Assembly: GCA_020624805.1 (NCBI GenBank)
Contig: JAHKVW010000017.1
Location: forward strand, 6,185 to 70,184
From: a bacterium
GTDB taxonomy: Bacteria > Bacillota > Clostridia > Oscillospirales > Acutalibacteraceae
Direction of reading: 5' to 3'
DNA: 64,000 nucleotides
Below the pieces are notes generated by a model, which was given only the letters and a program-made list of their open reading frames with translations, did not search any database and was not told where the DNA came from. Of this stretch, positions 22,413-45,342 are shown in pieces (position 1 is the first letter of the stretch; each line of letters begins with the position of its first letter). Made by a program: the position numbers and the translations under genes.

Positions 22413-22425
22413 TCTTACCCCTCCT

Positions 22426-24632: not shown

Positions 24633-24748
24633 AAAGTTCCTCCAAATGCTGATTCCGCATGATCGAATCAGCCCATAATAATACGCCAAAAGCGCACTCT
24701 CACATGTTCGGAGAGCGCGCTTATTGTTCTGTCAAAAATCGCTTACGA

Positions 24749-26113
<1,365 letters not shown>

Positions 26114-26129: not shown

Positions 26130-26227
26130 AAAAAAAACGCAAAAAAATAAAGGCACCTCGGACTATGTGTCCGAGACGCCTTTGTCTCAACAGCACGAAT
26201 TATACGCCCAAATTGTTCGTTTGTCAA
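26130..26227 (-). promoter_or_regulatory. gdhA promoter plus ANTAR-type hairpin/terminator
   Basis: TTGACA-N17-TATAAT, then GAGAC[AAAGGC]GTCTC inside the terminator 5' arm (...GGTGCCTTT ATTTTTTT). Confidence 0.85.
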
Positions 26228-26328
26228 GCAATTGAATGAAATTTAACAAAACTTACTAATTGGTTTTGCAGGATTTCCGTTCTTTTCTTGCAAAATGTGA
26301 AAAGATCGGGCTCACTCAAAATGAGGGA

Positions 26329-26420
26329 TTGACATCAAAAAATAATTATGTTAAAGTGTTAGCGGAACAAAGGCGTTCATTTGAGGCAGTATTCTGCGCT
26401 GCCCCAAATGGCGCTTTTTT
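26329..26420 (+). promoter_or_regulatory. GS-like 1 promoter plus ANTAR-type attenuator, copy 1
   Basis: TTGACA-N17-TAAAGT; GAAC[AAAGGC]GTTC; terminator ending GGCGCTTTTTT. Confidence 0.85.
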
Positions 26421-26430
26421 ATCTTTCATA

Positions 26431-26474
26431 ATCATTGCGAGGGCTCGGCACGATTGTCGGCTCGCGGCAATCAC
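26431..26474. repeat. REP-like family 1 unit between the tandem attenuators
   Basis: ATCATTGCGAGG...CGCGGCAATCAC. Confidence 0.75.
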
Positions 26475-26489
26475 AACTGATCTCGATAT

Positions 26490-26539
26490 GAACAAAGGCG
26501 TTCATCTAGACTGTTCCGGGTCTAAGTGTCGCCTTTTTT
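26490..26539 (+). promoter_or_regulatory. ANTAR-type attenuator, copy 2, before GS-like 1
   Basis: GAAC[AAAGGC]GTTC; terminator ending TCGCCTTTTTT. Confidence 0.85.
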
Positions 26540-26591
26540 ATATTTATATGTTTTTATATGGCATTACCTCTGAAAAGGAGCGAGTGAGAGC

Positions 26592-27800
26592 ATGAATCAT
26601 ACAGAGCAGGAATTGATGAAGCAGATCGAAGAAGAGGACGTCAAATTCATCCGTCTTTCCTTCTGTGATATCTACGGCGTTCAAAAGAATATTTCGATCC
26701 AGCGCAGCGAACTGCCCAGAGCCTTTGAGAAAGGCATCGGGATCGACGCTTCCTACATCAACGGCTTCGGCGGCGATTACGGCAAGGATATCTGGCTCCA
26801 TCCCGAGACGGATACGATCACGGTTCTGCCGTGGAGACCCGAGCACGGCAAGGTCGTCAGGATGTTCTGTACGCTGACCTACGAGGACGGTACTCCTGTC
26901 GAGACCGACACCCGCGCGGTATTAAAGGACGCTGTCAAATACGCCCAATCAAAGGGCTATCGCTTCCACTTCAAGTCCGAGCTGCAGTTCTATCTGTTCA
27001 AGACGGACGGCGACTCGGAGAATACCGGCGTTCCCTATGACAACGCAGGGTATATGGACATTGCGCCTCTCGACAAGGGCGAGAACGTGCGCCGTGAGAT
27101 CTGTCTGACGCTCGAACAGATGGGGATCGATCCCGAAAGCTCCCACCATGAGGCAGGACCCGGACAGAACGAGATCGACTTCCGCTATTCCGATCCGATC
27201 ACTGCCGCGGACAATACCGTGACTTTTCTCAGCGTCGTGCGCACTATCGCCGCACGCAACGGGCTTTATGCCGACTTCTCCCCAAAGCCGATCAAGGATA
27301 AGACCGGCTCGGCGCTGCATATTTCCGTATCGACAAAGGCAAAATCAGGAGAGGATGTGACCGACGCCGCGATCGCGGGCATCCTGCATAATATCGCCGG
27401 TATGACGGTATTCCTCAACCCGAAGGCGGAATCCTTTGAGCGCTTCGGCAAGCACAAAGCTCCGAAGTATATCACATGGTCACAGACGAATCGTTCTCAG
27501 CTTGTATTCTCGCGGCATACCGAAAGCGGCAGCCGCTGTGCTCAGCTGCGTTCACCCGACCCTCAGGCGAATCCGTATCTGGCATACGCCCTGATGATCT
27601 ACGCGATCATGGACGGTATCGAAAACGGCAGAACGTTACCGCAGCCCACGGATGAAAACGTCTTACAGCTCATCACCGATTCAGCAGAACCCCAAAAGCT
27701 GCCCGACAGTCTGGAGAAGGCGCGTATCGAAGCAACAAATTCACCGCTTGTACAGCGGTTCATCCCCTCGGCAGTGACCATGGTTTACTGTGCAGATTAA
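26592..27800 (+). CDS. glutamine synthetase type I-like protein, catalytically degenerate (paralog 1)
   Basis: GS fold motifs (VKFIRL.FCDI.G, HHEAGPGQNEIDF, RSPDP.ANPY), but ELQF, HKAP, LVFS and QLRS replace EPEF, YEAP, IRIP and EVRS; 402 aa. Confidence 0.85.
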   Translation: MNHTEQELMKQIEEEDVKFIRLSFCDIYGVQKNISIQRSELPRAFEKGIGIDASYINGFGGDYGKDIWLHPETDTITVLPWRPEHGKVVRMFCTLTYEDGTPVETDTRAVLKDAVKYAQSKGYRFHFKSELQFYLFKTDGDSENTGVPYDNAGYMDIAPLDKGENVRREICLTLEQMGIDPESSHHEAGPGQNEIDFRYSDPITAADNTVTFLSVVRTIAARNGLYADFSPKPIKDKTGSALHISVSTKAKSGEDVTDAAIAGILHNIAGMTVFLNPKAESFERFGKHKAPKYITWSQTNRSQLVFSRHTESGSRCAQLRSPDPQANPYLAYALMIYAIMDGIENGRTLPQPTDENVLQLITDSAEPQKLPDSLEKARIEATNSPLVQRFIPSAVTMVYCAD

Positions 27801-27874
27801 CAGCGTAGTAACCACTGCATTTTACCATATTATTGTTTACCTGATAACAAAAATCATCGAAAGGAGAGCGCACC

Positions 27875-28456
27875 TTGGACTTTACAGAGCACCGGTACAG
27901 AATACTGATCGTATCCTCGGACGACAGGTTCGGCAGAGAAGTCAGCACTCTCCTGCAGGGCGACCAATTTCAGCAGGATTTTTCCCGCAGCGCGTCGGAC
28001 GCCCGCTGTAAGCTGCTCGAAAACCAATACGATTTTGTGATCGTCAACGCGCCGTTGAGGGATGAGTTCGGCTCCCGTCTGTGTATCGATATCAGCCGCA
28101 ACAACGGCACCATCGCCGCGATCTTTGCGGCAACCGATACCTATGACGAGATCTACGCGAAGGTGTCCGTGCACGGCGTTTTCGCGCTCCATAAGCCGAC
28201 CTCCAAAACACTGGTCTCTCAGGCGGTGTCGCTGATGGTGTGCGCCAGAGAACGTCTGCGGTCGTTGGAAAAGAAGGTCGGCAACACCGAGAGCAAGCTC
28301 GACGAGATCCGCATCGTCAACAAAGCCAAATGGCTGTTGATCGATCAGGAAGGGCTGAGCGAGGCGGACGCGCATAAGTATATCGAGAAGTCCGCGATGG
28401 ATGCCGGTATCACCAAACGGCTTGCCGCTCAAATGATCATTGACAAATACCTGTAA
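27875..28456 (+). CDS. ANTAR antiterminator with pseudo-receiver domain (paralog 1)
   Basis: C-terminal RIVNKAKWLLI...SEADAHKYIEKSAMD ANTAR domain; phospho-Asp position is Asn (FVIVNAP). Confidence 0.9.
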   Translation: MDFTEHRYRILIVSSDDRFGREVSTLLQGDQFQQDFSRSASDARCKLLENQYDFVIVNAPLRDEFGSRLCIDISRNNGTIAAIFAATDTYDEIYAKVSVHGVFALHKPTSKTLVSQAVSLMVCARERLRSLEKKVGNTESKLDEIRIVNKAKWLLIDQEGLSEADAHKYIEKSAMDAGITKRLAAQMIIDKYL

Positions 28457-28497
28457 TAGGCGTATTTTCTAAGAGAGAATACGTCTTTGTCTTTTTC
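28453..28497 (+). terminator. terminator between ANTAR1 and glmS resembling a degenerate ANTAR element
   Basis: AGGCGTATTTTCT/AGAGAATACGTCT stem plus TTTTT; 3' arm ACGTCTTTGTC is complementary to GACAAAGACGT. Confidence 0.6.
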
Positions 28498-28535
28498 GGG
28501 CAGTTGACATATTATATTAGTAAAGGAGAACACTT

Positions 28536-30362
28536 ATGTGCGGAATAGTAGGATATGTCGGACCGCGTGACTGCGCGGATGTGCTGGTATCGGCTCTGAC
28601 AAAGCTGGAATATCGCGGATATGACTCCGCCGGTATCGCCGTGTTTGAAAACGGAAAGATCGAAGTCGCCAAAACCAAGGGCAGACTGGCTGATCTGACC
28701 GAGAAGATGGAGAAAGAAGGCAAGCCGCAGGGTCACGCCGGAATCGGCCATACGCGCTGGGCGACCCACGGCGAGCCGCGCGATATCAACTCTCACCCCC
28801 ACTCGGGGCGCAGGGTCACCATCGTCCATAACGGCATCATCGAGAACTACAAACAGCTCAAGCAATTCCTGATCGAAAACGACCGCACCGAGTTCCTCTC
28901 CGATACCGACACCGAGGTCGTGGCGCAGCTGCTTGACTTCTACTATGAGGGCGATCCCATTCGCTGTATCCGCCGTACGCTCCACGAGCTGCGCGGTTCC
29001 TTTGCGCTGGGGATCGTTTTCGCCGACCGTCCCGAGACCGTTTACGCGGTACGGTGTGAAAGCCCGCTGATCGTCGGTCAGGGTCAGGACGAGGTGTTCA
29101 TCGCCTCCGATGTGCCCGCCATCATCAAATATACCAAGGAATACTATCTGCTGGAGCAGGGCGAGATCGCGATCCTGAAAAACGGCAGTGTAGATTTTTG
29201 CACCCTGCACGGCAGAAAACTGAAGAAGGAACTGCTCTTTGCCGACTGGGATGAGGACAGCGCCGAAAAGGGCGGTTATCCGCACTTTATGCTCAAGGAG
29301 ATCCATGAGCAGCCCACCGCCGTCAAAACGACGGTCACGCCGCGCATCGAGGACGGTCTGCCCGATCTGTCCGAGTGCGGCATCATTTTCGGCACGCTGA
29401 GAAATCTGAAAAACATCTTCATCGTCGCCTGCGGTACCGCTATGCACGCCGGTATGGTGGGCAAATATGTCATCGAAAAGCTCGCGCGTGTACCCGTAAC
29501 AGTCGATATCGCCTCCGAGTTCCGCTATCGCGATCCGCTGTTGACGCACGACGACCTGATCATCATTATCAGCCAGAGCGGTGAGACCGCCGACAGTAAG
29601 GCAGTACTGAGTCTCGCCAAGTCGCGCGGCGCCAAAACGCTCGCGATCGTCAACGTCAAGGGCAGCTCCATTGCCAGAGAAGCCGATATGGTCATCTACA
29701 CCCACGCGGGTCCCGAGATCGCCGTCGCCTCCACCAAGGCGTATATGGTCCAGCTCGCGGTCATGTATCTGTTCGCCTTTGAAACAGCGCTCGCCAAGGG
29801 TAAGCTCGAGGAGAAGGAGTGCCGCAGACTGACTGCCGCGCTGCTCAAAATGCCCGATGTGATCGAGAAAACCATCGACAAGGTCATGGATATGTGCCAG
29901 TATGTTTCCACCAAGCTGATCACCGCCGACAGCCTGCTGTATATCGGCAGGGGGCTTGATTACGCGCTGTCGATGGAGGGCTCCTTAAAGCTCAAGGAGA
30001 TCAGCTATATTCATTCCGAAAGCTACGCCGCGGGTGAGCTCAAGCACGGTACGATCTCGCTGATCACCGAGGGGATGCCCGTGATCGCTGTCGCGACGCA
30101 GAACACCCTGCTCGAAAAGACCGTCAGCAACATCAAAGAGGTCAAGGCGCGCGGCGCGATGACCATCGTGATCTGTGACGAAGAAGCGGATATCGACGCG
30201 GACGCGGTCGACTACATGATCCGCATCCCGAAGATCAATGAGACGCTGATGCCGATGGTCGCCACAGTGCCCATGCAGCTCCTCGCGTACTACACCTCGG
30301 TCAACAAAGGCAACGACGTCGATAAGCCCCGCAATCTCGCCAAATCCGTCACGGTTGAGTAA
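28536..30362 (+). CDS. glmS: glutamine--fructose-6-phosphate aminotransferase
   Basis: MCGIVG, EYRGYDSAG, GHTRWATHG, SQSGETAD, ELKHG, PRNLAKSVTVE. Confidence 0.97.
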   Translation: MCGIVGYVGPRDCADVLVSALTKLEYRGYDSAGIAVFENGKIEVAKTKGRLADLTEKMEKEGKPQGHAGIGHTRWATHGEPRDINSHPHSGRRVTIVHNGIIENYKQLKQFLIENDRTEFLSDTDTEVVAQLLDFYYEGDPIRCIRRTLHELRGSFALGIVFADRPETVYAVRCESPLIVGQGQDEVFIASDVPAIIKYTKEYYLLEQGEIAILKNGSVDFCTLHGRKLKKELLFADWDEDSAEKGGYPHFMLKEIHEQPTAVKTTVTPRIEDGLPDLSECGIIFGTLRNLKNIFIVACGTAMHAGMVGKYVIEKLARVPVTVDIASEFRYRDPLLTHDDLIIIISQSGETADSKAVLSLAKSRGAKTLAIVNVKGSSIAREADMVIYTHAGPEIAVASTKAYMVQLAVMYLFAFETALAKGKLEEKECRRLTAALLKMPDVIEKTIDKVMDMCQYVSTKLITADSLLYIGRGLDYALSMEGSLKLKEISYIHSESYAAGELKHGTISLITEGMPVIAVATQNTLLEKTVSNIKEVKARGAMTIVICDEEADIDADAVDYMIRIPKINETLMPMVATVPMQLLAYYTSVNKGNDVDKPRNLAKSVTVE

Positions 30363-30556
30363 AGGCCCCCTTTCCTAAGGAGATTCCCCTGTTAGGGGAA
30401 ATGTCCGCAAAGCGGACAAAAGGGTCTGCAGCCTCCGCTGAGGAGTGCTGGCGCCGATAGGCGACTGGGGGTTGATACTTTTTAAGTCATATATTTCAAT
30501 AAAGATTGCAGGCAACCCTCCGCCCCTGCGGGGCACCTCCCTTAGAAAAGGGAGGC
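30363..30556. repeat. REP-like family 2 cluster (CCCCT...AGGGG hairpins)
   Basis: Short GC hairpins (TGTCCGCAAAGCGGACA, CCTCCCCTTAGAAAAGGGAGG) similar to 32192-32460 and 33777-33802. Confidence 0.6.
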
Positions 30557-30800
30557 AAAAAAGTACAGACCCCGTCGCAAGGCGGAGTCTGTAAACCAAA
30601 GGGGAGTGTGTGCAATTTTCTTTTGGCAATAAATAATGTTGATGAAGTATATATTGTTATAAGAAATCTCCCCTAAAGTCCGTTTTTGATCCTGATTTGA
30701 ATAGATCAAGATCACGAAAAAAGAAGGGTTTTGGGATTCCAAAACAGCAAAAAAGCGCCTTGAACCCCCTTGGGGGATTCAAGACGCCTTTGTCTTTACT
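30557..30800 (-). ncRNA. candidate ANTAR-controlled small RNA (~245 nt)
   Basis: Strong promoter plus attenuator with no RBS-led ORF downstream; two internal hairpins; ends at a hairpin plus U6 at 30557-30592. Confidence 0.5.
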
Positions 30801-30835
30801 GAGTGCATTATACGCTCCGATAACCAAATTGTCAA
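30749..30835 (-). promoter_or_regulatory. orphan promoter plus ANTAR-type attenuator
   Basis: TTGACA-N17-TATAAT; AGAC[AAAGGC]GTCT; terminator ...GGGGGTTCAAGGCGCTTTTTT. Confidence 0.85.
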
Positions 30836-30874
30836 GTGTTTTCAAAATATTTTAACGCTTTGATGTGCGAAAGA

Positions 30875-30903
30875 TTGACACGGCACGCCGATAATGATAT
30901 GAT
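30875..30903 (+). promoter_or_regulatory. sigma70 promoter of GS-like 2 (no ANTAR hairpin in the leader)
   Basis: TTGACA-N17-TATGAT. Confidence 0.65.
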
Positions 30904-30941
30904 ACAGAAGAAGATTTCACTTCTGAAAAGAGGGTGTCACC

Positions 30942-32150
30942 GTGACAACGGAAGAAAACCAGATCATGCAGTATATCGAGGAAGAGGACGTCAAGTTCAT
31001 CCGTCTTGCTTTCTGCGATATTTTCGGCGCGCAAAAGAATATCTCCGTCCAGCCCACCGAGCTGCAAAGGGCATTTGAAAGGGGCTATCCGATCGACGCT
31101 TCTTATGTGTCGGGCTTCGGCGGCGATTACGGCGTCGACGTTTGGCTGCGTCCCGAAGCGGATACCGTTTCCGTTCTCCCGTGGCGGCCGGAGCACGGCA
31201 AGGTGATCCGGATGTTCTGCGCACTGTGCTACTCAGACGGCAGACCGATCGAGGCGGATACGCGCTCTTTGTTGCGCGGCGCTGTGGAATATGCCCGCCA
31301 AAAGGGCTATCGCTTCCACTTCAAGTCCGAGATGCAGTTCTATCTTTTCAAGACCGATGAAAACGGAAACCGAACCGCTATTCCCTACGATCACGCGGGT
31401 TATATGGATATCGCGCCGCTGGATAAGGGCGAGAATATCCGCCGCGAGGTATGCCTGACGCTCGAGCAGATGGGCGTCATGCCCGAAAGCTCGCATCATG
31501 AAGCGGGACCCGGTCAGAATGAGATCGACTTCAAGTATGCTCAAGCTCTCCCTGCCGCCGATAATACAAGCACCTTTATCTCCGTCGTCCGCACGATCGC
31601 CGCGCAAAGCGGCTTGTATGCCGATTTTTCGCCGAAGCCGATCTCCGATAAGCCCGGCTCGGCGCTCCATATCCGTATGTCTGTCAAAGCAAAGGACGGC
31701 GAGGACGTCACCGAACGCGCTATCGCGGGTATCCTGAAGAACATCGCGGACATGACCATTTTTCTCAATCCGACCGAAAAATCCTTCAAGCGATTCAACA
31801 AGATGAAAGCGCCTAAATTTATCACATGGTCGGACAAAAACCGCGCTCAGCTGATTTTTGCGACCCGTACCGAGAGCGGCGGCAGATGCTTACAGCTTCG
31901 CTCTCCCGACCCCAACGCCAATCCCTATCTCGCGTTCGCGCTGATGATATACGCGGCGGTCGACGGCATCCAAAACGACTATCCGCTTTCTCCTTCGATC
32001 GATACAGAGCTGCAATACCTCTCCTCATCCGAGCAAAACGAGATAGAGCTTTTGCCCGATACTATCGTCAGGGCGCAGAACGCGGCTCTGAACAGCGACT
32101 TCATCAAGCGGTTTGTCCCCGACAGCATCATCAAAGCATATTGTAACTGA
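30942..32150 (+). CDS. glutamine synthetase type I-like protein, catalytically degenerate (paralog 2)
   Basis: Same length (402 aa) and the same substitutions as paralog 1 (EMQF, MKAP, LIFA, QLRS). Confidence 0.85.
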   Translation: MTTEENQIMQYIEEEDVKFIRLAFCDIFGAQKNISVQPTELQRAFERGYPIDASYVSGFGGDYGVDVWLRPEADTVSVLPWRPEHGKVIRMFCALCYSDGRPIEADTRSLLRGAVEYARQKGYRFHFKSEMQFYLFKTDENGNRTAIPYDHAGYMDIAPLDKGENIRREVCLTLEQMGVMPESSHHEAGPGQNEIDFKYAQALPAADNTSTFISVVRTIAAQSGLYADFSPKPISDKPGSALHIRMSVKAKDGEDVTERAIAGILKNIADMTIFLNPTEKSFKRFNKMKAPKFITWSDKNRAQLIFATRTESGGRCLQLRSPDPNANPYLAFALMIYAAVDGIQNDYPLSPSIDTELQYLSSSEQNEIELLPDTIVRAQNAALNSDFIKRFVPDSIIKAYCN

Positions 32151-32191
32151 TAATACGAAAGGCAGTCTGTTTTCGTGACCGATAGAGCACC

Positions 32192-32460
32192 AAGCCTTCC
32201 CCTCGGGGGGAAGGTGGGCAATTTGCTCTGTGCAAATTGGTCGGATGAGGGGCTGACTTATCCGACTGTTCTTCTTAACAAAGAGAGTAATGTTTTTCCT
32301 TTATTCTCGGTATACTTTTCGCCTCACCGAGTCCGACATCACCGGGAAAGGCTATCCCCCTCATCCGTCACCCTACGGGCGACACCTTCTCCTCGCCGGA
32401 AGCGGCTCCCCCCTTGTCCTTCGGACATTCCCCCAACGGGGGTACCCCGAGGGGAAGGCT
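32192..32460. repeat. REP/MITE-like family 2 cluster between convergent genes
   Basis: Termini AAGCCTTCCCC...GGGGAAGGCT; internal CCCCTCATCCG/CGGATGAGGGG inverted copies. Confidence 0.65.
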
Positions 32461-32559
32461 TTTTGGCGACATATGACAATAAAAGATTTATCTTTTGGAC
32501 GAAAGTTCAAGGGACTGTGGAAACAAAGCATGACGCTTTATTTCCACAGTCCCTTCATT

Positions 32560-33738
32560 TTATCTCAATAACTTTTTGATTCTCTCTACCGCTTCTACGG
32601 TGTTCTCTCTGTCGCCGAAGGAGGTCAGTCGAAAATAGCCTTTTCCCTGACTGCCGAAGCCCTCGCCGGGGGTTCCGACCACCTGCGCGTTTTCGAGAAG
32701 GTAATCGAAGAACTCCCAGCTTCCCATGCCTTTGGGGCACTCCAGCCAGATATACGGTGAGTTTTTACCGCCCGTATAGAATATCCCCAGCTCGTCGAGC
32801 GCCGCGGAGATAATCCGCGCGTTCTCTTTATAGTATTCGATATTTGCTTTGAATTCTTTTTGTCCCTCTTCGGAGAATACGGCGGCCGCGGCGCACTGCA
32901 CGGGATAGGACACGCCGTTGAATTTGGTCGCCTGACGGCGGTACCAAAGGGCATGGATATTGTGACCGTCGCGGACAAGCTCCTTCGGGATCACCGTATA
33001 GCCGCAGCGCACACCGGTAAAGCCCGCTGTCTTTGACAGAGAGCAGAATTCGATCGCACATTCTCTTGCCCCGTCGATCGCAAAGATCGAGCGCGGACAA
33101 TCATCCTCGATAAACGCCTCATATGCCGCGTCGTACAGGATGACCGCGTCATTTTTAATGGCGTAATCCACCCACGCCTTGAGCTGATCGGTACTGTAAG
33201 CCGCGCCGGTGGGATTATTCGGCGAGCAAAGATAGATGATATCCGCATGGATGCTCTCGTCGGGCATGGGCAGAAAACGATTCTCCCGCGTACCCGGCGC
33301 GTATACGATCTTCCTGCCCGCCATGATGTTCGCGTCGACATAGACGGGATAGACGGGATCGGGCACCATCACGGTGTTATCGGCGCCGAAAATATCGCCG
33401 ATATTGCCCGTGTCGGACTTTGCGCCGTCGCTGATAAAGACCTCATTCGCTTCGATCTTAACGCCGAAGCCGTCATAGTATCGGGCGACCGCCTCACGTA
33501 CAAAATCATAGCCCTCATATTCGGGATAACCCTTGAAGGTCTCTTTGAAGCTCAGCTCTCCCGCGCCGACCTTCATCGCCTGTACGGCAGTGCGCGGCAG
33601 CGGGAGCGTAACGTCGCCGATGCCGAGCCGGATGAGCTTTTGCTCAGGATGCGCGGCGGCATACGCCGAAGTCTTTTTCGCTATCTCGGCAAAGAGATAG
33701 TTTGGGACTAAATTATCAAAATTTCGGTTGATCTTCAT
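32560..33738 (-). CDS. dapL: LL-diaminopimelate aminotransferase
   Basis: NYLFAEIAKK, LGIGDVT, SDGAKSD, CSPNNPTG, SLSKTAGFTGVRCG, FRLTSFG. Confidence 0.95.
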   Translation of the reverse strand: MKINRNFDNLVPNYLFAEIAKKTSAYAAAHPEQKLIRLGIGDVTLPLPRTAVQAMKVGAGELSFKETFKGYPEYEGYDFVREAVARYYDGFGVKIEANEVFISDGAKSDTGNIGDIFGADNTVMVPDPVYPVYVDANIMAGRKIVYAPGTRENRFLPMPDESIHADIIYLCSPNNPTGAAYSTDQLKAWVDYAIKNDAVILYDAAYEAFIEDDCPRSIFAIDGARECAIEFCSLSKTAGFTGVRCGYTVIPKELVRDGHNIHALWYRRQATKFNGVSYPVQCAAAAVFSEEGQKEFKANIEYYKENARIISAALDELGIFYTGGKNSPYIWLECPKGMGSWEFFDYLLENAQVVGTPGEGFGSQGKGYFRLTSFGDRENTVEAVERIKKLLR

Positions 33739-33800
33739 ATCGTTTCCTTCCTTGGCAGGTTGAGATACAGTTATTCAAGGCTCCCTTTGGTAAAGGGGAG

Positions 33801-34382
33801 CTATAGATATCTGTCGATCACGATCTGAGCCGCCTGACGCTTGGTGATCCCCGCCGCCATCGCCTGCTGTTCGATATACCGATGAGCATCGATCTCGCTC
33901 ATATCCTCATTATCGATCAAAAACCATTTTGCTTTGTTGACGATGCGGATCTCCTGCAGTTTATCCTCGGCTTTGCCCGCCTTTTTCTCTACGGTTCTCA
34001 ACATCTCGCGCGCGGAGATCAAGAGAGATAACGCCTGTATGATCGTCTGCTGTGAGGACGGCTTGCGAATGACAAAAACGCCGTAAGACACGGTTCTTTG
34101 CATGATGTCCTCGTACACATCCGAGGGCGCGAAGATGACCGCCAGCGTGCCGACATGATCCGTCACGTCGATGCACAGGTGCGAGCCGAACTCGTCGCTG
34201 AGCGGCGCGTTGACGATCACAAAATCATAGCTCTTTTCCGTCAGAACGCGTCTTGCCTCGCCCGCGTTCGTCACATGATCGGTGTGAAAATGTCTTTCGC
34301 GCAGAAGGGAGCTTATCTCTTGCATGAACCTTTCAGACAGCGAGACCACCAACGCATGATAGCGAACCTGTTCTAAAGTCAT
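33801..34382 (-). CDS. ANTAR antiterminator with pseudo-receiver domain (paralog 2)
   Basis: YDFVIVNAPL (Asn at the phospho-site); RIVNKAKWFLI...SEIDAHRYIEQQAM. Confidence 0.9.
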   Translation of the reverse strand: MTLEQVRYHALVVSLSERFMQEISSLLRERHFHTDHVTNAGEARRVLTEKSYDFVIVNAPLSDEFGSHLCIDVTDHVGTLAVIFAPSDVYEDIMQRTVSYGVFVIRKPSSQQTIIQALSLLISAREMLRTVEKKAGKAEDKLQEIRIVNKAKWFLIDNEDMSEIDAHRYIEQQAMAAGITKRQAAQIVIDRYL

Positions 34383-34431
34383 ATTCTCCCTTCACCTCTT
34401 TTCGATCCGTACACGGAAGTACGATCAACGT

Positions 34432-34516
34432 AAAAAGGCGCTATTCGGGCACAAGCTCCCAAATAAACGCCTTTGTTTATCGAGGCTATTATAGCATTAT
34501 TCGCATATTATGTCAA
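34432..34516 (-). promoter_or_regulatory. ANTAR2 promoter plus ANTAR-type attenuator (autoregulation)
   Basis: TTGACA-N17-TATAAT; AAAC[AAAGGC]GTTT; terminator ...CCCGAATAGCGCCTTTTT. Confidence 0.85.
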
Positions 34517-34570
34517 TCGTTTAAAACGTCAAAGCGTTAAATTTTTTTGATAATTTTTTCACGATTACCC

Positions 34571-34663
34571 TTGACAAATGAAAATTCGCGTCGTATAATG
34601 CGTGCTGTAAAGACAAAGGCGTTTTGAACCTGCGTGGTTTGAAACGCCTTTGTCTATTTCTTT
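34571..34663 (+). promoter_or_regulatory. glnN promoter plus ANTAR-type attenuator
   Basis: TTGACA-N17-TATAAT; AGAC[AAAGGC]GTTT; 3' arm AAACGCCTTTGTCT then ATTTCTTT. Confidence 0.88.
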
Positions 34664-34682
34664 ACGAAAAGGAGAAGGTATT

Positions 34683-36776
34683 ATGGCAAACGTAGCAGAA
34701 TATTTCGGAAGTCTGGTATTTGACGACAAGACGATGAAAGAGCGGCTGGATCCCAAAATCTACAAGCAGCTCCGCAAAACGATCGACGACGGCGAGCAGC
34801 TGAATATTCAGGTAGCGAACGCCGTAGCCGCCGCGTTAAAGGAATGGGCGGTAGAAAAGGGCGCGACCCACTATACCCACTGGTTCCAACCGCTGACCGG
34901 TATCACCGCCGAAAAGCATGACAGCTTTATCACTCCCTCGCCCGACGGCAGAGTGATCATGGAATTCTCCGGCAAGGAGCTGATCAAGGGCGAGCCTGAC
35001 GCGTCCTCGTTCCCCTCGGGCGGTCTGCGCGCGACCTTTGAAGCAAGAGGCTATACCGCGTGGGACCCCACCTCCTACGCTTTCATCAAGGGCAAGACCC
35101 TTTGTATCCCCACCGCGTTCGCTTCCTACAGCGCCGACGCGCTGGATAAAAAGACGCCGCTTTTGCGCTCCATGCAGGCGCTGAACATTCAGGCAACGCG
35201 CGTCTTGAAGCTCTTCGGCAACGAGGACGTCAAGCGTGTCGTCACCTCTGTCGGACCCGAGCAGGAATACTTTTTGGTTCCCAAGGAGCTGTACGCGAAG
35301 CGCAAGGATCTGATCTATACGGGACGAACCCTCTTCGGCGCGCGTCCTCCCAAGGGTCAGGAGCTCGACGATCACTATTTCGGTACCATCAAGCCGCGTG
35401 TGCTCGCCTATATGGAGGATCTCAACGACGAGCTGTGGAAGCTCGGCATCCTCGCGAAAACCCAGCATAACGAGGTCGCGCCCGCTCAGCATGAGCTGGC
35501 TCCCATCTACACGACGACCAATGTCGCGACCGATCACAACCAGCTGACGATGGAGATCATGCAGAAGGTCGCGGAGCGTCACGGTCTGGTATGTCTGCTG
35601 CACGAAAAGCCCTTTAAGGGCGTGAACGGCTCGGGCAAGCACAACAACTGGTCGATCGGCACGGATACCGGCGTCAACCTGCTCACTCCCGGTGAGACGC
35701 CGTTTGAGAACGTCCAGTTCCTGCTGTTCCTCGTAGCGGTCATCAAGGCGGTCGACGAGTATCAGGATCTGCTGAGACTGTCCGTCGCGACCGCCGGTAA
35801 CGATCACCGTCTGGGCGCGAATGAAGCGCCGCCCGCCGTCATCTCCATCTTCCTCGGCGACGAGCTGACTGCCGTTCTGGACGCGATCGAGAACGATACC
35901 GAGTATGAGGGCACCAAGAAGAAATATATGAAGCTCGGCGTTGACGTTCTGCCGCGTTTCAGACGCGACACCACCGACCGCAACCGTACCTCGCCCTTTG
36001 CGTTCACGGGCAACAAGTTCGAGTTCCGTATGCTCGGTTCCTCCAACTCCATCGCCTGCTGCAATATGATGCTCAACTCCGCTGTCGCGGAAGTCTTGAA
36101 GCAGTTTGCGGATGTGCTGGAGAATTCCGAGAACTTTGAAAATGATGTTCACAACCTGATCCGCAAGACGATCAAGGATCACAAGCGGATCATCTTCAAC
36201 GGCAACGGTTATGACGACGCTTGGATCGAAGAAGCCGAAAAGCGCGGACTCTCCAATCTCAGAACCACCGCCGACGCGATGCCGCATCTGCTGGATGAAA
36301 AGAACGTCGCGATGCTGACCTCTCATAAGGTGTTCACCAAAGCGGAGCTGGAAAGCCGCATGGAGATCATGTTGGAAAACTACGTCAAGCAGGTCAACAT
36401 CGAAGCACTGACGATGGTGGATATGACCGGCAAACAGATCATCCCCGCGATCGAAACCTATCTGATGAAGCTTTTGAAGAATGTTTCTATGAAGAAGGCG
36501 ATCTCGCCCGATATCAGCTGCGCCTATGAGACCGCGAACATCGAGAAGCTCTCCGCTGCCTGTGACGAGATGAGCGCCAACGCGGGTATCCTCGAGCGCT
36601 TGGCGGAGCACCTCGCTCATATCGATGATATCGTGGAGCAGGCGAACTTCGTCCGCGACGAGCTCCTGCCGCAGATGGATACGCTGCGCAGCTATGCCGA
36701 CGCCGCGGAAGCGGTCGTTGACGCGGAGATCTGGCCGCTGCCGACCTACGGCGAGCTGCTCTTCGGCGTAAGATAA
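34683..36776 (+). CDS. glnN: glutamine synthetase type III
   Basis: [75 protein letters not shown]; catalytic motifs intact. Confidence 0.96.
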
Positions 36777-36779
36777 ATA

Positions 36780-36825
36780 GGTTGAGATTGCCACAGCATT
36801 GACAGATCAATGCTTCGCAATGACG
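36780..36825. repeat. REP-like family 1 unit
   Basis: GGTTGAGATTGCCACAGC...GCTTCGCAATGAC. Confidence 0.8.
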
Positions 36826-36835
36826 ATTGATAAAA

Positions 36836-36876
36836 GTACAAAGGCGTACTCTGCTTTCGCGGGGTACGCCTTTATT
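36836..36876 (+). promoter_or_regulatory. intercistronic ANTAR-type attenuator before amt
   Basis: GTAC[AAAGGC]GTAC inside the AAAGGCGTACTCTGC/GCGGGGTACGCCTTT stem. Confidence 0.82.
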
Positions 36877-36900
36877 AGTGGTCAGTGGTTAGTGGTCAGT
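36877..36900 (+). repeat. heptamer tandem repeat AGTGGTY x3
   Basis: AGTGGTC AGTGGTT AGTGGTC AGT. Confidence 0.8.
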
Positions 36901-36979
36901 TAACCGATGACCGAAACAAAATAAACAATGCTAATGACCGGCAATATGCAGCCGGTTACTCAATTTGGAAGGTGAAACT

Positions 36980-38707
36980 ATGACTATGACAGTAGAATTC
37001 TGGTTCCTGATCGGAGCCGCGCTGGTGTTCTGGATGCAGGCAGGCTTTGCCATGGTAGAGGCGGGCTTTACCCGCGCCAAGAACGCCGGAAACATCATCA
37101 TGAAAAACCTGATGGACTTTTGTATCGGCACGGTCGTGTTCGCTCTCTTGGGCTACACGATCATGATGGGCGAGGATACCCTGTTCGGACTGATCGGTAT
37201 CCCGAACATGGACTTGTTCGGTCACTTCAAGGAGTTCATCGCGTCTCCCGGGAACGGCGACTTTACCGCCGCTTCCACATTCGTATTCAACCTCGTTTTC
37301 TGCGCCACCACCGCGACCATCGTATCCGGCGCGATGGCGGAAAGAACGAAATTCTCCGCTTACTGTATCTACTCGGGCGTTATCTCGCTGTTCATCTACC
37401 CGATCGAAGCGCACTGGATCTGGGGCGGCGGCTGGCTCTCTCAGCTGGGCTTCCATGACTACGCAGGTTCCTGCGCGATCCACATGGTCGGCGGCATCGC
37501 GGCATTGATCGGCGCGGCGGTGCTCGGACCCCGTCTCGGAAAATACGAGCGTGATGAAAACGGCAAGGTCGTCAAGGTCAACGCATTCCCCGGTCACAAC
37601 ATCGTCATCGGCGCGTTGGGCGTATTCATCCTGTGGCTCGGTTGGTACGGCTTCAACGGCGCGGCGGCGACTACTCCGAGTGAGCTTGCTTCTATCTTTT
37701 TGACTACCACCATCGCTCCCGCGGTCGCCACCTGCGTCACGATGGCATTCACATGGATTAAAAACGGCAAGCCCGATGTATCCATGTGCCTGAACGCATC
37801 CTTGGCAGGCTTGGTCGGAATCACCGCAGGCTGCGACGCGCTTGACGCGATCGGCGCGACCGTCGTCGGCGTTGTCAGCGGTATTCTGGTTGTCGTCGTG
37901 GTCGAGGTGCTTGACATGAAGCTGCACATCGACGATCCCGTCGGCGCGGTCGGCGTTCACATGGCAAACGGTATCTGGGGCACGATCGCGGTCGGTCTGC
38001 TCGCGAATCCCGACGCTCCCGCAGGGCTCAGCGGCTTGCTGTATACAGGAGATTTCCGTCAGCTCGGCTTACAGCTCTTAGGCTTCGGCTCCGTTGCGGT
38101 ATACGCGGCGATCATGATGGTCATCACCTTTGTGATCATCAAAAAGACGATCGGACTGCGCGCAACGGCTGAGGAAGAGATCATGGGTCTCGACATCACC
38201 GAGCACGGCCTGCCGTCGGCATACGCGGGCTTTGCGGCGACATCGGAGGACTATTCCGTATACGGCGAGGACGTCGCCGTCGTCGCGGGTGAAACGCCCG
38301 TGGCAGAAGCTGTCGAGGTCAAGAGCGTTCCGTCCTTTGATAACGGCGAGCAACGGTTCACAAAGATCGAGATCATCTGTAAGGAAGCTCGGTTTGAAAA
38401 GCTCAAGAGAGCGATGGCACAACTCGGCATCACCGGCATGACCGTTACCCATGTCATGGGCTACGGCTCACAGAAGGGCAAGCCCGAGTATTACCGCGGT
38501 GTTTTGGTCGATACCAACCTGCTGCCGAAGATCCAGGTCGAGATGGTCGTATCCGCGATCCCTGTCCGCGACGTGATCGAAGCGGCAAAGAGAGCGCTCT
38601 ATACCGGACACATCGGCGACGGCAAGATCTTCGTTTACAACGTAGATAATATTGTCAAGGTGCGCACCGGAGAAGAAGGCTATGCCGCCTTGCAGGATGT
38701 GGAATAA
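36980..38707 (+). CDS. amtB: ammonium transporter fused to a C-terminal P-II (GlnK-like) domain
   Basis: MQAGFAMVEAG, HWIWGGGWL, DYAGSCAIH, WLGWYGFNG, DDPVGAVGVH; P-II GITGMTV...YRG...TGHIGDGKIFV...VRTGE. Confidence 0.95.
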   Translation: MTMTVEFWFLIGAALVFWMQAGFAMVEAGFTRAKNAGNIIMKNLMDFCIGTVVFALLGYTIMMGEDTLFGLIGIPNMDLFGHFKEFIASPGNGDFTAASTFVFNLVFCATTATIVSGAMAERTKFSAYCIYSGVISLFIYPIEAHWIWGGGWLSQLGFHDYAGSCAIHMVGGIAALIGAAVLGPRLGKYERDENGKVVKVNAFPGHNIVIGALGVFILWLGWYGFNGAAATTPSELASIFLTTTIAPAVATCVTMAFTWIKNGKPDVSMCLNASLAGLVGITAGCDALDAIGATVVGVVSGILVVVVVEVLDMKLHIDDPVGAVGVHMANGIWGTIAVGLLANPDAPAGLSGLLYTGDFRQLGLQLLGFGSVAVYAAIMMVITFVIIKKTIGLRATAEEEIMGLDITEHGLPSAYAGFAATSEDYSVYGEDVAVVAGETPVAEAVEVKSVPSFDNGEQRFTKIEIICKEARFEKLKRAMAQLGITGMTVTHVMGYGSQKGKPEYYRGVLVDTNLLPKIQVEMVVSAIPVRDVIEAAKRALYTGHIGDGKIFVYNVDNIVKVRTGEEGYAALQDVE

Positions 38708-38802
38708 CAGATTTATGAGGAGCCGCAGTTCCCTTCAAATAGTCAAAAACCCTGAATAACAACTCTCATTAAGTTGCCAAAAAGACAGGCTCCCCTAAGT
38801 CA

Positions 38803-38835
38803 CAGACCCCGAGGACATATTCCCCGGGGTCTGCA
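38803..38835 (+). terminator. terminator after amt-PII
   Basis: CAGACCCCG...CCGGGGTCTG hairpin then CATTTT. Confidence 0.6.
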
Positions 38836-38842
38836 TTTTATC

Positions 38843-39136
38843 TTATATACTGTTTTCCAAATCTCTCTTGCCGTACATTACTCTCAGGATAGAAACAGTT
38901 CCGGCGCTCTCTTCTACCGAATAGAACACAAGATAATTGTCAACAGGCATCAATCGAATATCATTTTTATAGACAGGAAACCGCTTTGGCAGTTGATCGA
39001 GATTTTCGATCCTGTTCTCCAATCGGGATAACTGTGCTTCGGCGTTTTCCGGTGACAGCAATGACAAGGCGATATACTCATAGATTGCGCGGATATCTTT
39101 ATCTGCCTGTGAAGAGATGTTTACCGAATAATTCAC
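38843..39136 (-). CDS. type II toxin, RelE/ParE family
   Basis: YSVNISSQADKDIRAIYEYIA...VDNYLVFY...ILRVMYGKRD. Confidence 0.88.
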   Translation of the reverse strand: MNYSVNISSQADKDIRAIYEYIALSLLSPENAEAQLSRLENRIENLDQLPKRFPVYKNDIRLMPVDNYLVFYSVEESAGTVSILRVMYGKRDLENSI

Positions 39137-39438
39137 AGTTTATAATCCTTTCTGATATCGGCAAACGCTTGCTTTGACTCTTTGACCTTGCCGCTCTTGA
39201 CGTCATCGATCCCCTTTTGCAGTTCAAGGTCGATCTCCTGCTCGGTGAGCTGATTGAAGTTCAATACACTTTGTTCAGGCAATTTCAGTTCAAACGGCAT
39301 TCCTCTTTGCAATATGATCTGTTTGTAAAACATATTGATCGCATTGGATGCGGGGATTCCGAGTGCGGATAGTATACTTTCTGCTTGCTCTTTTAATTCC
39401 GGTTCGATCCTCACATAAAGATTTGCGGTTTTTGACAT
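39133..39438 (-). CDS. type II antitoxin, RelB/DinJ family
   Basis: LYVRIEPELKEQAESILSALGIPASNAINMFYKQIILQRGMPF; GTGA overlap with the toxin. Confidence 0.9.
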   Translation of the reverse strand: MSKTANLYVRIEPELKEQAESILSALGIPASNAINMFYKQIILQRGMPFELKLPEQSVLNFNQLTEQEIDLELQKGIDDVKSGKVKESKQAFADIRKDYKL

Positions 39439-39531
39439 TTTCAATGCTCCTTTCCGTGTGTTCTGTATCTATTATACACAATTGTAAGCACAAACGCAAT
39501 ACATCTGACCGAAATAGTACCGGATCATTTC

Positions 39532-39609
39532 TTGACAAACATCATGACAAGTAATATAATACTTGATGGCAAAGACGCCTTGAATCTCCAAAGCGTCTTT
39601 GCCTTTTTT
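39532..39609 (+). promoter_or_regulatory. purF-carAB promoter plus ANTAR-type attenuator (AAAGAC loop variant)
   Basis: TTGACA-N17-TATAAT; GGC[AAAGAC]GCC; 3' arm GCGTCTTTGCC then TTTTTT. Confidence 0.8.
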
Positions 39610-39627
39610 ATGTAAAAAAGAGGTTTT

Positions 39628-41061
39628 ATGATGAACAATATCCATGAAGAATGCGGCGTGTTCGGCATCTACAGCACGGATGATGACGATTTAGCGGCGT
39701 TGACCTATTACGGGCTGTATGCCTTACAGCACCGCGGACAGGAAAGCGCCGGTATTGCCGTGAACGATGACGGCGTGTTCCGCTGTATCAAAGGCGAAGG
39801 CTTGGTCAGCGAGGTGTTCAGCGGCGACAAGCTCCGATCCCTCGGGACGGGTCATATCGCTGTCGGTCATGTGCGTTATGCCACCACCGGCAGCAACGCC
39901 GCCCAGAATATCCAGCCGCTCTTGGTCAACCACCACAAGGGCAGGATGGCGCTGTGCCATAACGGCAATCTGTCCAATTCCTATCTGCTGAGAACAAGGC
40001 TGGAGGAAAACGGCGCGATCTTCCATACCACCACCGATTCCGAGGTTATCTCCTATATGATCGTACAGGAGCGACTGCGGCAGGGCTCGATCGAAAAGGC
40101 TGTCAGCTCGGCGATGGATACGATCGAGGGTGCGTATTCCCTCGTGATCTGCTCCCCGCAAAAGCTGATCGCCGTTCGTGATCCGCACGGTTTTCGTCCG
40201 CTGTGCTACGGCGTGACCGACAGCGGCAGTGTGGTATTCGCCTCGGAATCCTGCGCGCTGGACGCGGTCGGCGCCAAGCTCGTCAGAGATTTGATGCCGG
40301 GGGAGATGGCGATCGTCGACAAAAACGGTCTGCGATTCGATACGACGCACTGCGGCAAAGTGCCGAAACACTTTTGCGTGTTTGAATACATTTATTTTGC
40401 GCGTCCCGATTCGGTGATCGACGGCGCGTCTGTCAGTCTATGCCGCCAGCGAGCGGGCAGATTTCTGGCAAAAGAACACCCTGTGGACGCGGACATCGTG
40501 ATCGGTGTTCCCGATTCGGGGTTAGAGGCGGCGATCGGGTACTCGTATGAATCGGGGATACCATACGCTATCGGCTTCACCAAGAACAAATATATCGCCC
40601 GCACGTTTATCACTCCGGGACAGGGCTCGCGTGAAGCGGGCGTGGGGATCAAGCTCAATCCGATCCGTGAGATCGTCAGGGATAAGCGCGTCGTGCTGAT
40701 CGATGATTCGATCGTGCGTGGCACCACCTGCCGCCGTATCGCCGATCTCTTGTGGCAGGCGGGGGTCAAAGAGATCCATATGCGCGTCAGCGCCCCGCCC
40801 TTTGTCGCGCCGTGCTACTACGGTACCGACATCGACTCCGCCGATGTGCTGATCGCCAATCGAATGAGCACAGATGAGATCGCAAAGGAGATCGGCGTGA
40901 CTTCGCTCGGTTACCTCAGTATTGAAAATGTCAGACTGCTGACGGGAACGGACAGCGGCTTTTGTACCGCTTGTTTCGGCGGCAATTATCCGACCGCGAT
41001 CCCCGACAAAACAGCGAAGAATCGCTTTGAAACCAAAATCAGTGAACAGCAAAAGGGATGA
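39628..41061 (+). CDS. purF: amidophosphoribosyltransferase
   Basis: EECGVFG, LQHRGQESAG, VGHVRYAT, VLIDDSIVRGTT. Confidence 0.96.
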   Translation: MMNNIHEECGVFGIYSTDDDDLAALTYYGLYALQHRGQESAGIAVNDDGVFRCIKGEGLVSEVFSGDKLRSLGTGHIAVGHVRYATTGSNAAQNIQPLLVNHHKGRMALCHNGNLSNSYLLRTRLEENGAIFHTTTDSEVISYMIVQERLRQGSIEKAVSSAMDTIEGAYSLVICSPQKLIAVRDPHGFRPLCYGVTDSGSVVFASESCALDAVGAKLVRDLMPGEMAIVDKNGLRFDTTHCGKVPKHFCVFEYIYFARPDSVIDGASVSLCRQRAGRFLAKEHPVDADIVIGVPDSGLEAAIGYSYESGIPYAIGFTKNKYIARTFITPGQGSREAGVGIKLNPIREIVRDKRVVLIDDSIVRGTTCRRIADLLWQAGVKEIHMRVSAPPFVAPCYYGTDIDSADVLIANRMSTDEIAKEIGVTSLGYLSIENVRLLTGTDSGFCTACFGGNYPTAIPDKTAKNRFETKISEQQKG

Positions 41062-42170
41062 ATGGAATGAATGACAATTCACAATTCGATCGCAAATTGA
41101 TTTTAGAAAACGGCGCCTTGTTCTACGGAAAAGGGTTCGGCTGTACGGACGATAAGGTCGTTGAGATCGTGTTCAATACTTCGCCTGTCGGTTATCAGGA
41201 GATCCTCTCCGACCCGTCCTATACCGATCAGGGCGTCGTGATGGCGTATCCGCTCATCGGCAACTACGGCATGGCGGAGGATGACTACGAGTGCGACACG
41301 CCGACGATCGGCGCGCTGATCGTGCGCGAATATAACGGCGAGCCGTCCAACTTCCGCAGTAAGGAGCCCTTGGAGGATGTGATGAAGCGTTACGGTATCG
41401 TCGGCGTCAGCGAGATCGATACCAGACGGTTGATCCGACATATCCGTGATTACGGCTCATGCAAGGCGCTGATCACCTCCGCAAATACTCCGGCAGAGGT
41501 TGCCGAAAAAGCGATAAAAGAAGCCTCGCTCCCGCATGACGCTGTCAGCCGCGTCAGCAGGAATCGCTTTCAAAAATACGATTCAACCGAGCATTTGTAT
41601 CATGTCGTCGCGATCGACTGCGGCATGAAAATGAACATCGTGCGCTCACTCACACAAAGAGGCTGTGATGTGATGGTCGTTCCGTGGGACGCACGCGTGC
41701 GTGATATCCTTTCGCTCGATCCGGACGGTATCTTTTTATCTAACGGCCCCGGCAACCCGGAGGATGTTCCCGAGGTGATCGACGCTGTGAAGGAGCTGAT
41801 CGGCACTGTTCCGATTTTCGGTATCTGTCTGGGACATCAGATCCTGTCACTCGCCTACGGAGCGAAAACCTATAAGCTGAAATTCGGTCATCGCGGCGGC
41901 AATCATCCCGTCAAAAATCTGCTGACAAATCAAATCGAGATCACCTCGCAAAATCATTCTTACGCGGTCGACGCGGAAAGTCTGAAAAAAACGCCGCTCA
42001 CCGCGACGCATATCAATCTTCTGGACAACACGGTCGAAGGCGTCGAGTGCGCGAAAGACGCCGTCTTTGGTGTGCAGTATCATCCCGAATCCGCTCCGGG
42101 GCCGCAGGACAGCTCCTATCTGTTTGACCGGTTTATCGATTGGATGAAGGAGGCGAAAGACAATGCCTAA
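41058..42170 (+). CDS. carA: carbamoyl-phosphate synthase small subunit
   Basis: [43 protein letters not shown]. Confidence 0.96.
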
Positions 42171-45100: not shown

Positions 45101-45342
45101 GCAAGCTGGGTAAGATCAGCGAGGGCAGCACCGAGATACTCGACGCGATCCGCGCAGGCTACGTCAGCTATGTTATCAACACCCGCGCCATCATGTCGGG
45201 CGTCCACTATGAGGACGGCACTGCCATCCGTCAGACGGCTGTCGAGAACGGCGTGACCATCTTCACATCATTAGATACCGTTCGTGTTCTGCTCGATGTA
45301 CTCGAAGAAACCACGCTGACGATCTCGACGATAGATGCGTGA
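42163..45342 (+). CDS. carB: carbamoyl-phosphate synthase large subunit
   Basis: [22 protein letters not shown], duplicated ATP-grasp domains. Confidence 0.97.

Follow-up and report, generated by a model that had tools for sequence, protein, structure and literature searches.

How does an antiterminator that has no phosphorylation site, and no kinase encoded beside it, receive information on nitrogen? This question is raised by a 64,000-nucleotide stretch of contig JAHKVW010000017.1 (the window), from a bacterium of the Acutalibacteraceae (assembly GCA_020624805.1), in which two ANTAR-domain proteins, ANTAR1 and ANTAR2, are encoded among nitrogen-assimilation genes. In a scan of species-representative genomes, the window proteins were 98-99% identical to those of rumen Ruminococcus and Clostridiales metagenome-assembled genomes (MAGs) such as RUG641. 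Each ANTAR gene lies near a gene for a catalytically degenerate glutamine synthetase (GS) look-alike, and this proximity suggests the look-alike as the nitrogen sensor hitherto missing from a regulatory system widespread in gut Clostridia. With moderate confidence, we interpret the region as the core of a NitR-type nitrogen regulon in which the GS-like protein serves the ANTAR protein as a non-catalytic sensor or adaptor.

The two GS-like proteins, GSL1 (26592..27800, + strand) and GSL2 (30942..32150, +, served by a separate promoter at 30875-30903 without an attenuator), each consist of 402 amino acids and are 67% identical. Both match the Gln-synt_N and Gln-synt_C families (Pfam E-values 6.5e-72 and 4.4e-18), while their scores of 265.7 and 275.2 bits against the GlnA equivalog TIGR00653 do not reach its cutoff of 429.15. 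The AlphaFold2 (AF2) model of GSL1 displays a type I GS (GS-I) alpha fold (pLDDT 87.5, pTM 0.91) with TM scores of about 0.9-0.92 to the GS structures of M. mazei, S. aureus, L. monocytogenes and B. subtilis, which include enzymes known as partners of GlnR, TnrA and GlnK. The catalytic sites were compared by alignment to the S. aureus GS 7tdv using B. subtilis numbering. Five motifs are altered in GSL1 and GSL2: EPE to ELQ or EMQ, GYEAP to KHKAP, IRVP to VFSR, TRIEVR to RCAQLR, and NGSGMH to TGSALH. From the six GS-I metal ligands scored (E132, E134, E189, E196, H245 and E333), E134 and E333 are replaced by Gln in both proteins, so that each metal site loses one ligand. The Glu of the catalytic flap (E304 in B. 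subtilis, E327 in Salmonella) has become Lys, and two ATP-site Arg residues are gone (the IRVP Arg to Phe and the first TRIEVR Arg to Cys). The Asn of NGSGMH is Thr or Pro among the GS-like proteins and R62 has changed to Gly, with Gly or Asp found at this position. We take R62 and E304 to be central to the mechanism by which B. subtilis GS acts with TnrA and GlnR; here they are Gly/Asp and Lys. The GS-like proteins also have an internal 13-residue deletion relative to 7tdv and to 439-residue relatives, and their C-terminus is shorter by about 24 residues than that of the 439-residue relatives and by about 40 than that of canonical GS-I. The change of GQHE to GQNE is presumably the normal GS-I-beta state, judging by the E. 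coli sequence, and was not counted as a catalytic loss. Retained in both proteins are E132, E189, E196, H245, D50', the SYKR Arg, the NRS Arg and the last TRIEVR Arg. The type III GS of the window (GSIII, glnN; 34684..36776, +, with an ATG start codon at 34684) keeps all catalytic motifs when compared with B. fragilis GSIII (3o6x).

Ratios of nonsynonymous to synonymous substitution (dN/dS) lay at 0.05-0.07 for GSL1 and at 0.07-0.10 for GSL2, values in the range of those for gdh and glmS; some of the corresponding GSIII values are frame artefacts and were disregarded. By these ratios, the degenerate GS-like copies are not decaying genes and stand under strong purifying selection.

ANTAR1 (27875..28456, +) and ANTAR2 (33801..34382, -) are NitR-type proteins of 193 amino acids each, 55% identical, composed of a pseudo-receiver and an ANTAR domain. 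The ANTAR domain PF03861 is matched with 50 and 42.9 bits (cutoff 27.3), and the receiver-like N-terminus of both proteins scores below the Pfam cutoff. Their best sequence match in the PDB is Rv1626 (1s8n), with AmiR (1qo0) as a weak match. The phospho-acceptor Asp of Rv1626 aligns with Asn58, and Asn occupies this site in 85 of 85 relatives, where it is part of or followed by a conserved NAPLxD[ED]xG loop. The acidic pair of the receiver is replaced by Ser-Ser/Ala while Lys107-Pro108 is retained. Since the acceptor residue is an invariant Asn, the ANTAR proteins are predicted to be incapable of phosphorylation, and no kinase gene occurs among the neighbors of ANTAR1 and ANTAR2 (the GS-like genes, glmS, the aminotransferase gene and GSIII). 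The Asn pseudo-receiver is a trait of the entire NitR-type ANTAR family, including those members that are paired with an intact GS.

A survey of species-representative genomes returned 412 relatives of GSL1, from which the best 79 loci (79 species-level genomes) were analyzed. Carriers include Ruminococcus, Lachnospiraceae, Blautia, Mediterraneibacter, Anaerotignum, Acutalibacteraceae and Christensenellaceae. For 76 of the 88 GS-like genes in these loci, a gene for an ANTAR protein of about 193 residues follows on the same strand 14-278 nt downstream (median 48); the gap between GSL1 and ANTAR1 is 74 nt. Three of the 12 genes without an adjacent ANTAR gene are located at contig ends, and eight of the other nine are GSL2 copies from the species group of the window, with ANTAR2 1.6 kb away. 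A regulatory GS-like protein might instead have another target than the ANTAR protein, namely GSIII, the ammonium transporter fused to P-II (Amt-PII) or glutamate synthase (GOGAT), through mixed oligomers or inhibition by protein-protein contact. Such a role would agree with the GSIII or GOGAT genes that adjoin the GS-like/ANTAR pair in most loci and with the ability of GS-I-alpha enzymes to bind small regulatory proteins, for example GlnK1 in 8tge. However, the constant neighbor is the ANTAR gene, the positions of GSIII, GOGAT and Amt vary from locus to locus, and the ANTAR proteins have no other visible input; we consider a target other than the ANTAR protein quite improbable.

The same survey indicates how the catalytic site was lost. 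Members of the family of about 400 residues (396-405 amino acids) carry the C-terminal truncation in all 89 cases and a flap Lys in 88-89 of 89. Loss of metal ligands is confined to the Ruminococcus clade, in which both Glu to Gln changes (E134 and E333) occur in all 42 sequences, a third metal ligand is gone in a few of them, the IRVP Arg has become Phe, Ser or Ala, and the first TRIEVR Arg has become Cys. Forms of about 400 residues with the flap Glu as their only loss are found in Lachnospiraceae and others. A sister family of 439-440 residues, from Desulfotomaculum and an Oscillospiraceae genome, keeps all catalytic residues, the flap Glu and the C-terminus; its GS-I gene is also followed by a gene for a 189-residue ANTAR protein with an Asn phospho-site, within a GOGAT-GS-ANTAR-carAB operon. 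Because an intact GS-I is thus likewise paired with an Asn-type ANTAR protein, the alignments indicate that the pairing and the Asn pseudo-receiver are old and that catalysis was lost later and stepwise. By the same residue comparison, the Ruminococcus forms are probably catalytically dead.

Should the GS-like proteins nonetheless still be enzymes, either weak GS or gamma-glutamyl ligases or hydrolases, the ANTAR adjacency would merely reflect descent from glnA-nitR, and the ANTAR protein would sense nitrogen otherwise, for instance through a small ligand on its pseudo-receiver or through the P-II domain of Amt-PII. In favor of this, the half of the family outside Ruminococcus has all its metal ligands, the fold is maintained together with the substrate-site SYKR Arg, NRS Arg, last TRIEVR Arg and D50', and GS-I paralogues elsewhere are gamma-glutamyl-amine ligases, with weak NCBIfam matches to GGputSyn seen for the GS-like proteins here. 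Against this stand the joint loss of one ligand per metal site, of two ATP-site Arg residues and of the flap Glu, with a third ligand lost in some sequences, and the persistence of the ANTAR adjacency across families despite a decaying catalytic site. GSIII, moreover, is present as the highly expressed GS. We therefore consider it rather unlikely that the GS-like proteins act as enzymes with a merely inherited ANTAR neighbor. In assembled contigs from public rumen metatranscriptome runs, which give rough abundance and no information on termination or read-through, GS-like and ANTAR genes lie far below GSIII, gdh and amt, a pattern that weakly fits regulators in the first case and enzymes in the second.

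Two observations concern the wider GS-like family. Among the representatives of 50%-identity clusters related to GSL1 (P0122-P0270, 380-440 residues), many are badly disrupted at the metal-ligand and Arg positions, a hint that GS-I-derived pseudoenzymes have radiated well beyond the clade studied here. The giant proteins P0121 (4424 residues) and P0151 (2757 residues) contain 12 and 6 GS-like stretches with about 29% identity to GSL1, and could be multi-GS fusions or assembly artefacts.

The putative targets of the antiterminators are found in the leaders of the region. The motif CAAAGRCG occurs 21 times in the window against 5.1 expected, and 0 of 100 shuffles reach this number. Eight copies, at 26177(-), 26368(+), 26493(+), 30785(-), 34468(-), 34614(+), 36839(+) and 39570(+), are located in 5' leaders in sense orientation, embedded in terminators and directly behind promoters. 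Seven of these precede protein genes, and the one at 30785(-) precedes none. In five of the eight leaders the promoter is a perfect (12/12) TTGACA-17-TATAAT promoter, and since the hairpin follows directly, transcripts would begin only about 7-10 nt ahead of it. Each leader hairpin consists of a 3-7 bp stem, P1, closing the hexaloop AAAGGC (AAAGAC at purF), and the loop with the 3' arm of P1 doubles as the 5' arm of a long terminator stem with GCCUUU and a U-run at its end. Predicted folding gave -1.7 to -7.1 kcal/mol for P1 alone and -22 to -36 kcal/mol for the terminators; because the terminators are so much more stable, these energies predict that the leaders terminate by default. The terminator apical loops are 3 to 9 nt long and unconserved. 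A CAAAGACG match at 28482(-) was rejected as an attenuator, as it lies on the wrong strand of what is merely a plain + strand terminator without a hexaloop hairpin (28458..28496, in the interval between ANTAR1 and glmS).

In the related loci, 137 attenuators built in this way were counted, with 69 distinct cores; they precede GSIII, gdh and amt and, in Lachnospiraceae, also an operon of GOGAT (5 genes), GS-like and ANTAR genes. Hexaloop positions A1 and G4 and the closing pairs (C-G, R-U) are invariant in 41 distinct sites and agree with the substrate rules of EutV, which requires the same bases at hexaloop positions 1 and 4 together with conserved closing pairs (PMC3369931). Covariation of the P1 stem is seen across these 41 distinct cores, with 58 cells altered on both sides where shuffles gave 19.9 (0/500), and two P1 pairs that played no part in site selection vary as AU20/GC17 and AU18/UA12. 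Every terminator is paired with a single hexaloop hairpin, which lies at the extreme 5' end of the transcript; a search upstream and downstream of P1, in the window leaders and at the relatives' sites, found no other conserved hexaloop hairpin. A hairpin with an ACAGAU loop before the amt attenuator was considered as a second hexaloop and set aside, being part of a repeat and probably coincidental.

If the hairpins were ordinary terminators or a dispersed repeat, no ANTAR-dependent attenuation would take place. Searches of Rfam, at the gathering threshold and at E<=5, returned nothing relevant, and an unrelated repeat resembling repetitive extragenic palindromic (REP) elements is indeed present in the window, both of which would suit that explanation. 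All eight hairpins are nevertheless in 5' leaders, in sense orientation and directly behind promoters, their hexaloop and closing pairs are invariant above a covarying stem, and the same design stands ahead of nitrogen genes in distant ANTAR-carrying families. An explanation by plain terminators or repeats is, in our judgment, extremely improbable.

The individual leaders conform to a common plan. The gdh leader (26139..26227, -) has a perfect sigma-70 promoter at 26227-26199, the P1 hairpin GAGAC-AAAGGC-GUCUC at 26188-26173 and a terminator at 26183-26149 followed by a U-run. On the opposite strand, the GSL1 leader (26329..26539, +; promoter 26329-26357) holds two tandem attenuators (about 26365-26421 and 26489-26539), each of them complete with a P1 stem, the hexaloop AAAGGC and a terminator. 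The ANTAR2 leader (34430..34516, -) has a perfect promoter at 34516-34488, P1 UAAAC-AAAGGC-GUUUA and a terminator, and the GSIII leader (34571..34663, +) a perfect promoter at 34571-34599, P1 AAGAC-AAAGGC-GUUUU and a terminator at 34611-34655. The attenuator of the amt-PII leader (36835..36880, +) combines P1 GUAC-AAAGGC-GUAC with a terminator, and the purF leader (39532..39606, +) has a perfect promoter at 39532-39560, P1 GGC-AAAGAC-GCC and a terminator. Attenuators therefore stand ahead of GSIII, amt-PII, gdh and purF as well as ahead of the regulator genes GSL1-ANTAR1 and ANTAR2. With the leaders described, the anatomy given by a first-pass annotation made from the letters alone can be upheld: it had named two GS-I-like proteins with replaced catalytic residues, two Asn-site ANTAR proteins without an adjacent kinase (one directly behind GSL1), eight hairpins embedded in terminators, and an intact GSIII. 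Its claim that the hairpins lie ahead of nitrogen genes needs the proviso that the leader at 30785(-) lacks a protein gene.

This orphan leader (30745..30835, -) has a perfect promoter at 30835-30807, P1 AAGAC-AAAGGC-GUCUU and a terminator at 30791-30751, and lies within the 580-nt non-coding gap between glmS and GSL2. The orphan region as a whole (30557-30835, -) thus combines a perfect promoter and an ANTAR-type attenuator without a protein gene. Past a variable spacer follows a block of about 125 nt (30557..30683, -), convergent with the 3' end of glmS, which is near-invariant in nine related MAGs and has a predicted long AGGGGAG/CUCCCCU stem and its own terminator (30593-30564). Internal indels of 1, 2 and 6 nt argue that the block is non-coding, and it has no match in Rfam. 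We regard it as a candidate nitrogen-gated small RNA.

The REP-like repeat mentioned above is a palindrome of about 45 nt with the structure GGTTGAGATTGCC-[variable hairpin]-TCGCAATGAC. Copies are located at 20008-20053(-), 13854-13893(-) and 36780-36824(+), with an inverted copy at about 26431-26483; these sites lie upstream of gltB, in the gltD/pyrG interval, before the amt attenuator and between the GSL1 attenuators, respectively. The sequence GGTTGAGATTG has 6 matches in the window against 1.1 expected. The repeat may be either REP-like or a second regulatory site.

Taken as a regulatory module, the region would operate as follows. Transcription from near-consensus constitutive promoters would by default end within the short leaders. 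By homology to EutV and NasR, an ANTAR protein would bind the hexaloop hairpin, blocking the terminator and permitting read-through into gdh, GSIII, amt-PII, purF-carAB, GSL1-ANTAR1, ANTAR2-aminotransferase and the small non-coding RNA. We infer that the ANTAR protein is in turn governed by protein-protein contact with the GS-I-derived protein encoded next to it. Catalysis would be left to GSIII, and the GS-like protein, now probably a non-catalytic sensor or adaptor for the antiterminator, would probably still have an amino-acid pocket that accepts glutamine or glutamate. As for the sign of control, the GS-like protein would most likely sequester the ANTAR protein while carrying its ligand, under nitrogen-rich conditions. 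In a C. thermocellum mutant without its type I GS, nitrogen-assimilation genes reportedly were up despite high glutamine, and this behavior fits GS-I as a negative regulator.

Several points weigh against this interpretation. GSL2 and ANTAR2 are not adjacent in the window. One related locus (L013) has two ANTAR genes and one GS-like gene, and in another (L014) the GS-like gene is followed directly by glmS while the sole ANTAR gene, of the ANTAR2 type, is elsewhere. About half of the family of 400 residues, outside Ruminococcus, keeps all six metal ligands, and judging by these residues such members may still be enzymes; even in the degenerate forms, Gln may still bind metal weakly, leaving a residual or altered catalysis. 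The adjacency of GS-like and ANTAR genes could be a legacy of glnA-nitR that involves no regulatory contact. Two hexaloop hairpins are required by the known ANTAR dimers, and the window leaders have one. The sign of regulation is uncertain because glutamine users (purF, carAB and glmS) share the switch with the assimilation genes.

The central proposal of the first-pass annotation, a GS scaffold acting as sensor for the ANTAR protein, is strengthened in one part: the pair adjacency, the stepwise decay under purifying selection and the conserved motif support, on comparative grounds, a functional coupling of the two proteins. The complex itself, its ligand and the sign of its control remain at the level of the conditional scheme given above. 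More tentatively, and with slightly less than even confidence, we extend the scheme to the whole GS-I-derived family of Clostridia, which ranges from active enzymes to dead pseudoenzymes: its members may be dedicated receptors for glutamine (or glutamate or a nucleotide) that bind the NitR-type Asn pseudo-receiver and thereby gate a single-hexaloop regulon together with a nitrogen-gated small RNA. If so, the input that has long been missing from the clostridial NitR system would be GS-derived receptors, and nature would have performed a separation-of-function experiment in the Ruminococcus genomes.

The remaining genes of the region are as follows. The glutamate dehydrogenase gene gdh (24749..26095, -; Pfam ELFV_dehydrog) is the first gene behind its leader and is followed on the same strand by NuoE/F-like genes, beyond which the minus strand carries gltB, gltD and pyrG. 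Within the gdh run (20211-26095, -), short gaps separate gdh from genes for a thioredoxin-like 2Fe-2S protein, a Nuo51-like protein and a 733-residue Fe-S/flavin oxidoreductase, and a terminator near 20190 separates the last of these from gltB-gltD-pyrG; the gdh attenuator may therefore also control this redox module. Domain matches identify glmS (glutamine-fructose-6-P aminotransferase; 28536..30362, +), a class I/II aminotransferase (32560..33738, -) downstream of ANTAR2 on the same strand, and the Amt-PII protein (36981..38707, +), a single polypeptide with a C-terminal P-II domain. A comparable Amt/P-II fusion is mentioned for C. thermocellum Clo1313_2260 (PMC4676874). A ParE toxin/RelB antitoxin pair (38843-39444, -) is inserted between amt-PII and the purF leader, behind which purF-carA-carB, encoding glutamine amidotransferases, extend over 39628..45342 (+; NCBIfam-type profile match). 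ORF134 (32175-32579, 134 residues) was rejected as a gene, having no family match and a low-complexity translation rich in Arg, Pro and Ser. RNA contigs from two sheep-gut runs peak at 31871-32437, overlapping ORF134, and the interval 32175-32579 may be a non-coding transcript or a repeat.

The implications are greatest for the Ruminococcus form of the module, in which purifying selection after the loss of catalytic residues argues that the conserved job of the GS partner is regulatory. This form offers a clean system for studying sensing without catalysis, and a testable answer to how the NitR/glnA system senses nitrogen. Given 412 matches in species-representative genomes, the module is present in many gut and rumen Clostridia and probably shapes ammonia assimilation there. 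The single-hexaloop leaders, which Rfam misses, widen the definition of an ANTAR target.

The module resembles several known systems in part. In B. subtilis a GS-I-alpha protein likewise reports glutamine status by protein contact, to TnrA and GlnR (PMC9249791); that system uses a working enzyme and MerR-type DNA-binding partners, whereas the output here would be RNA antitermination. In AmiC/AmiR and NasS/NasT, a ligand-binding partner, the product of a neighboring gene, restrains an unphosphorylated ANTAR protein until its release allows antitermination (PMC3795266). AmiC and NasS have the fold of periplasmic binding proteins and sense amides or nitrate; the proposed partner here has a GS fold. 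Unlike EutV or Rv1626-type response regulators, ANTAR1 and ANTAR2 lack the phospho-acceptor Asp, the acidic pair and a nearby kinase. With the target RNAs of EutV, NasR and AmiR (Ramesh et al. 2012), the window leaders have in common the hexaloop A1 and G4, the closing pairs and the mutual exclusion with a terminator. In the canonical target a short linker separates two hexaloop hairpins and the terminator overlaps P2, while the window leaders have a single hairpin whose loop lies within the terminator stem.

The closest relatives are the glnA-nitR systems. The first-pass annotation knew of no description of its exact combination. An operon of GS-I and ANTAR genes is not new, being the glnA-nitR arrangement known from C. 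saccharobutylicum and from C. thermocellum (PMC6316151, PMC4676874, PMC9888227); searches of the literature available to us found no account of an ANTAR protein whose GS partner is catalytically dead. In C. saccharobutylicum, the ANTAR protein NitR switches on GS/GOGAT genes when nitrogen is limiting, and its mechanism is described as 'not fully understood' (PMC6316151). In C. thermocellum, the type I GS Clo1313_2031 sits between the ANTAR gene Clo1313_2030 and a GOGAT cluster (PMC4676874, PMC9888227), and its deletion, in the words of a title, 'deregulates nitrogen metabolism' (Rydzak 2017, cited in PMC9888227), an effect for which our scheme, if true, would account. The glnA-nitR(-gltAB) cluster of C. 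saccharobutylicum NCP262 and Clo1313_2030-2036 of C. thermocellum both have a type I GS gene with an ANTAR gene directly behind it, as here, and show nitrogen co-regulation of their GS/GOGAT-type genes (PMC6316151, citing Stutz 2007; PMC4676874; PMC9888227). The Lachnospiraceae relatives share the order GOGAT-GS-ANTAR with these clusters. The classical glnA encodes an active GS that reportedly complements E. coli glnA. In contrast, the partner described here has about 400 residues and has lost the flap Glu and, in Ruminococcus, also two metal ligands and two Arg residues; GSIII would take over assimilation, the pair occurs in duplicate, and single-hexaloop attenuators described from sequence are the putative targets.

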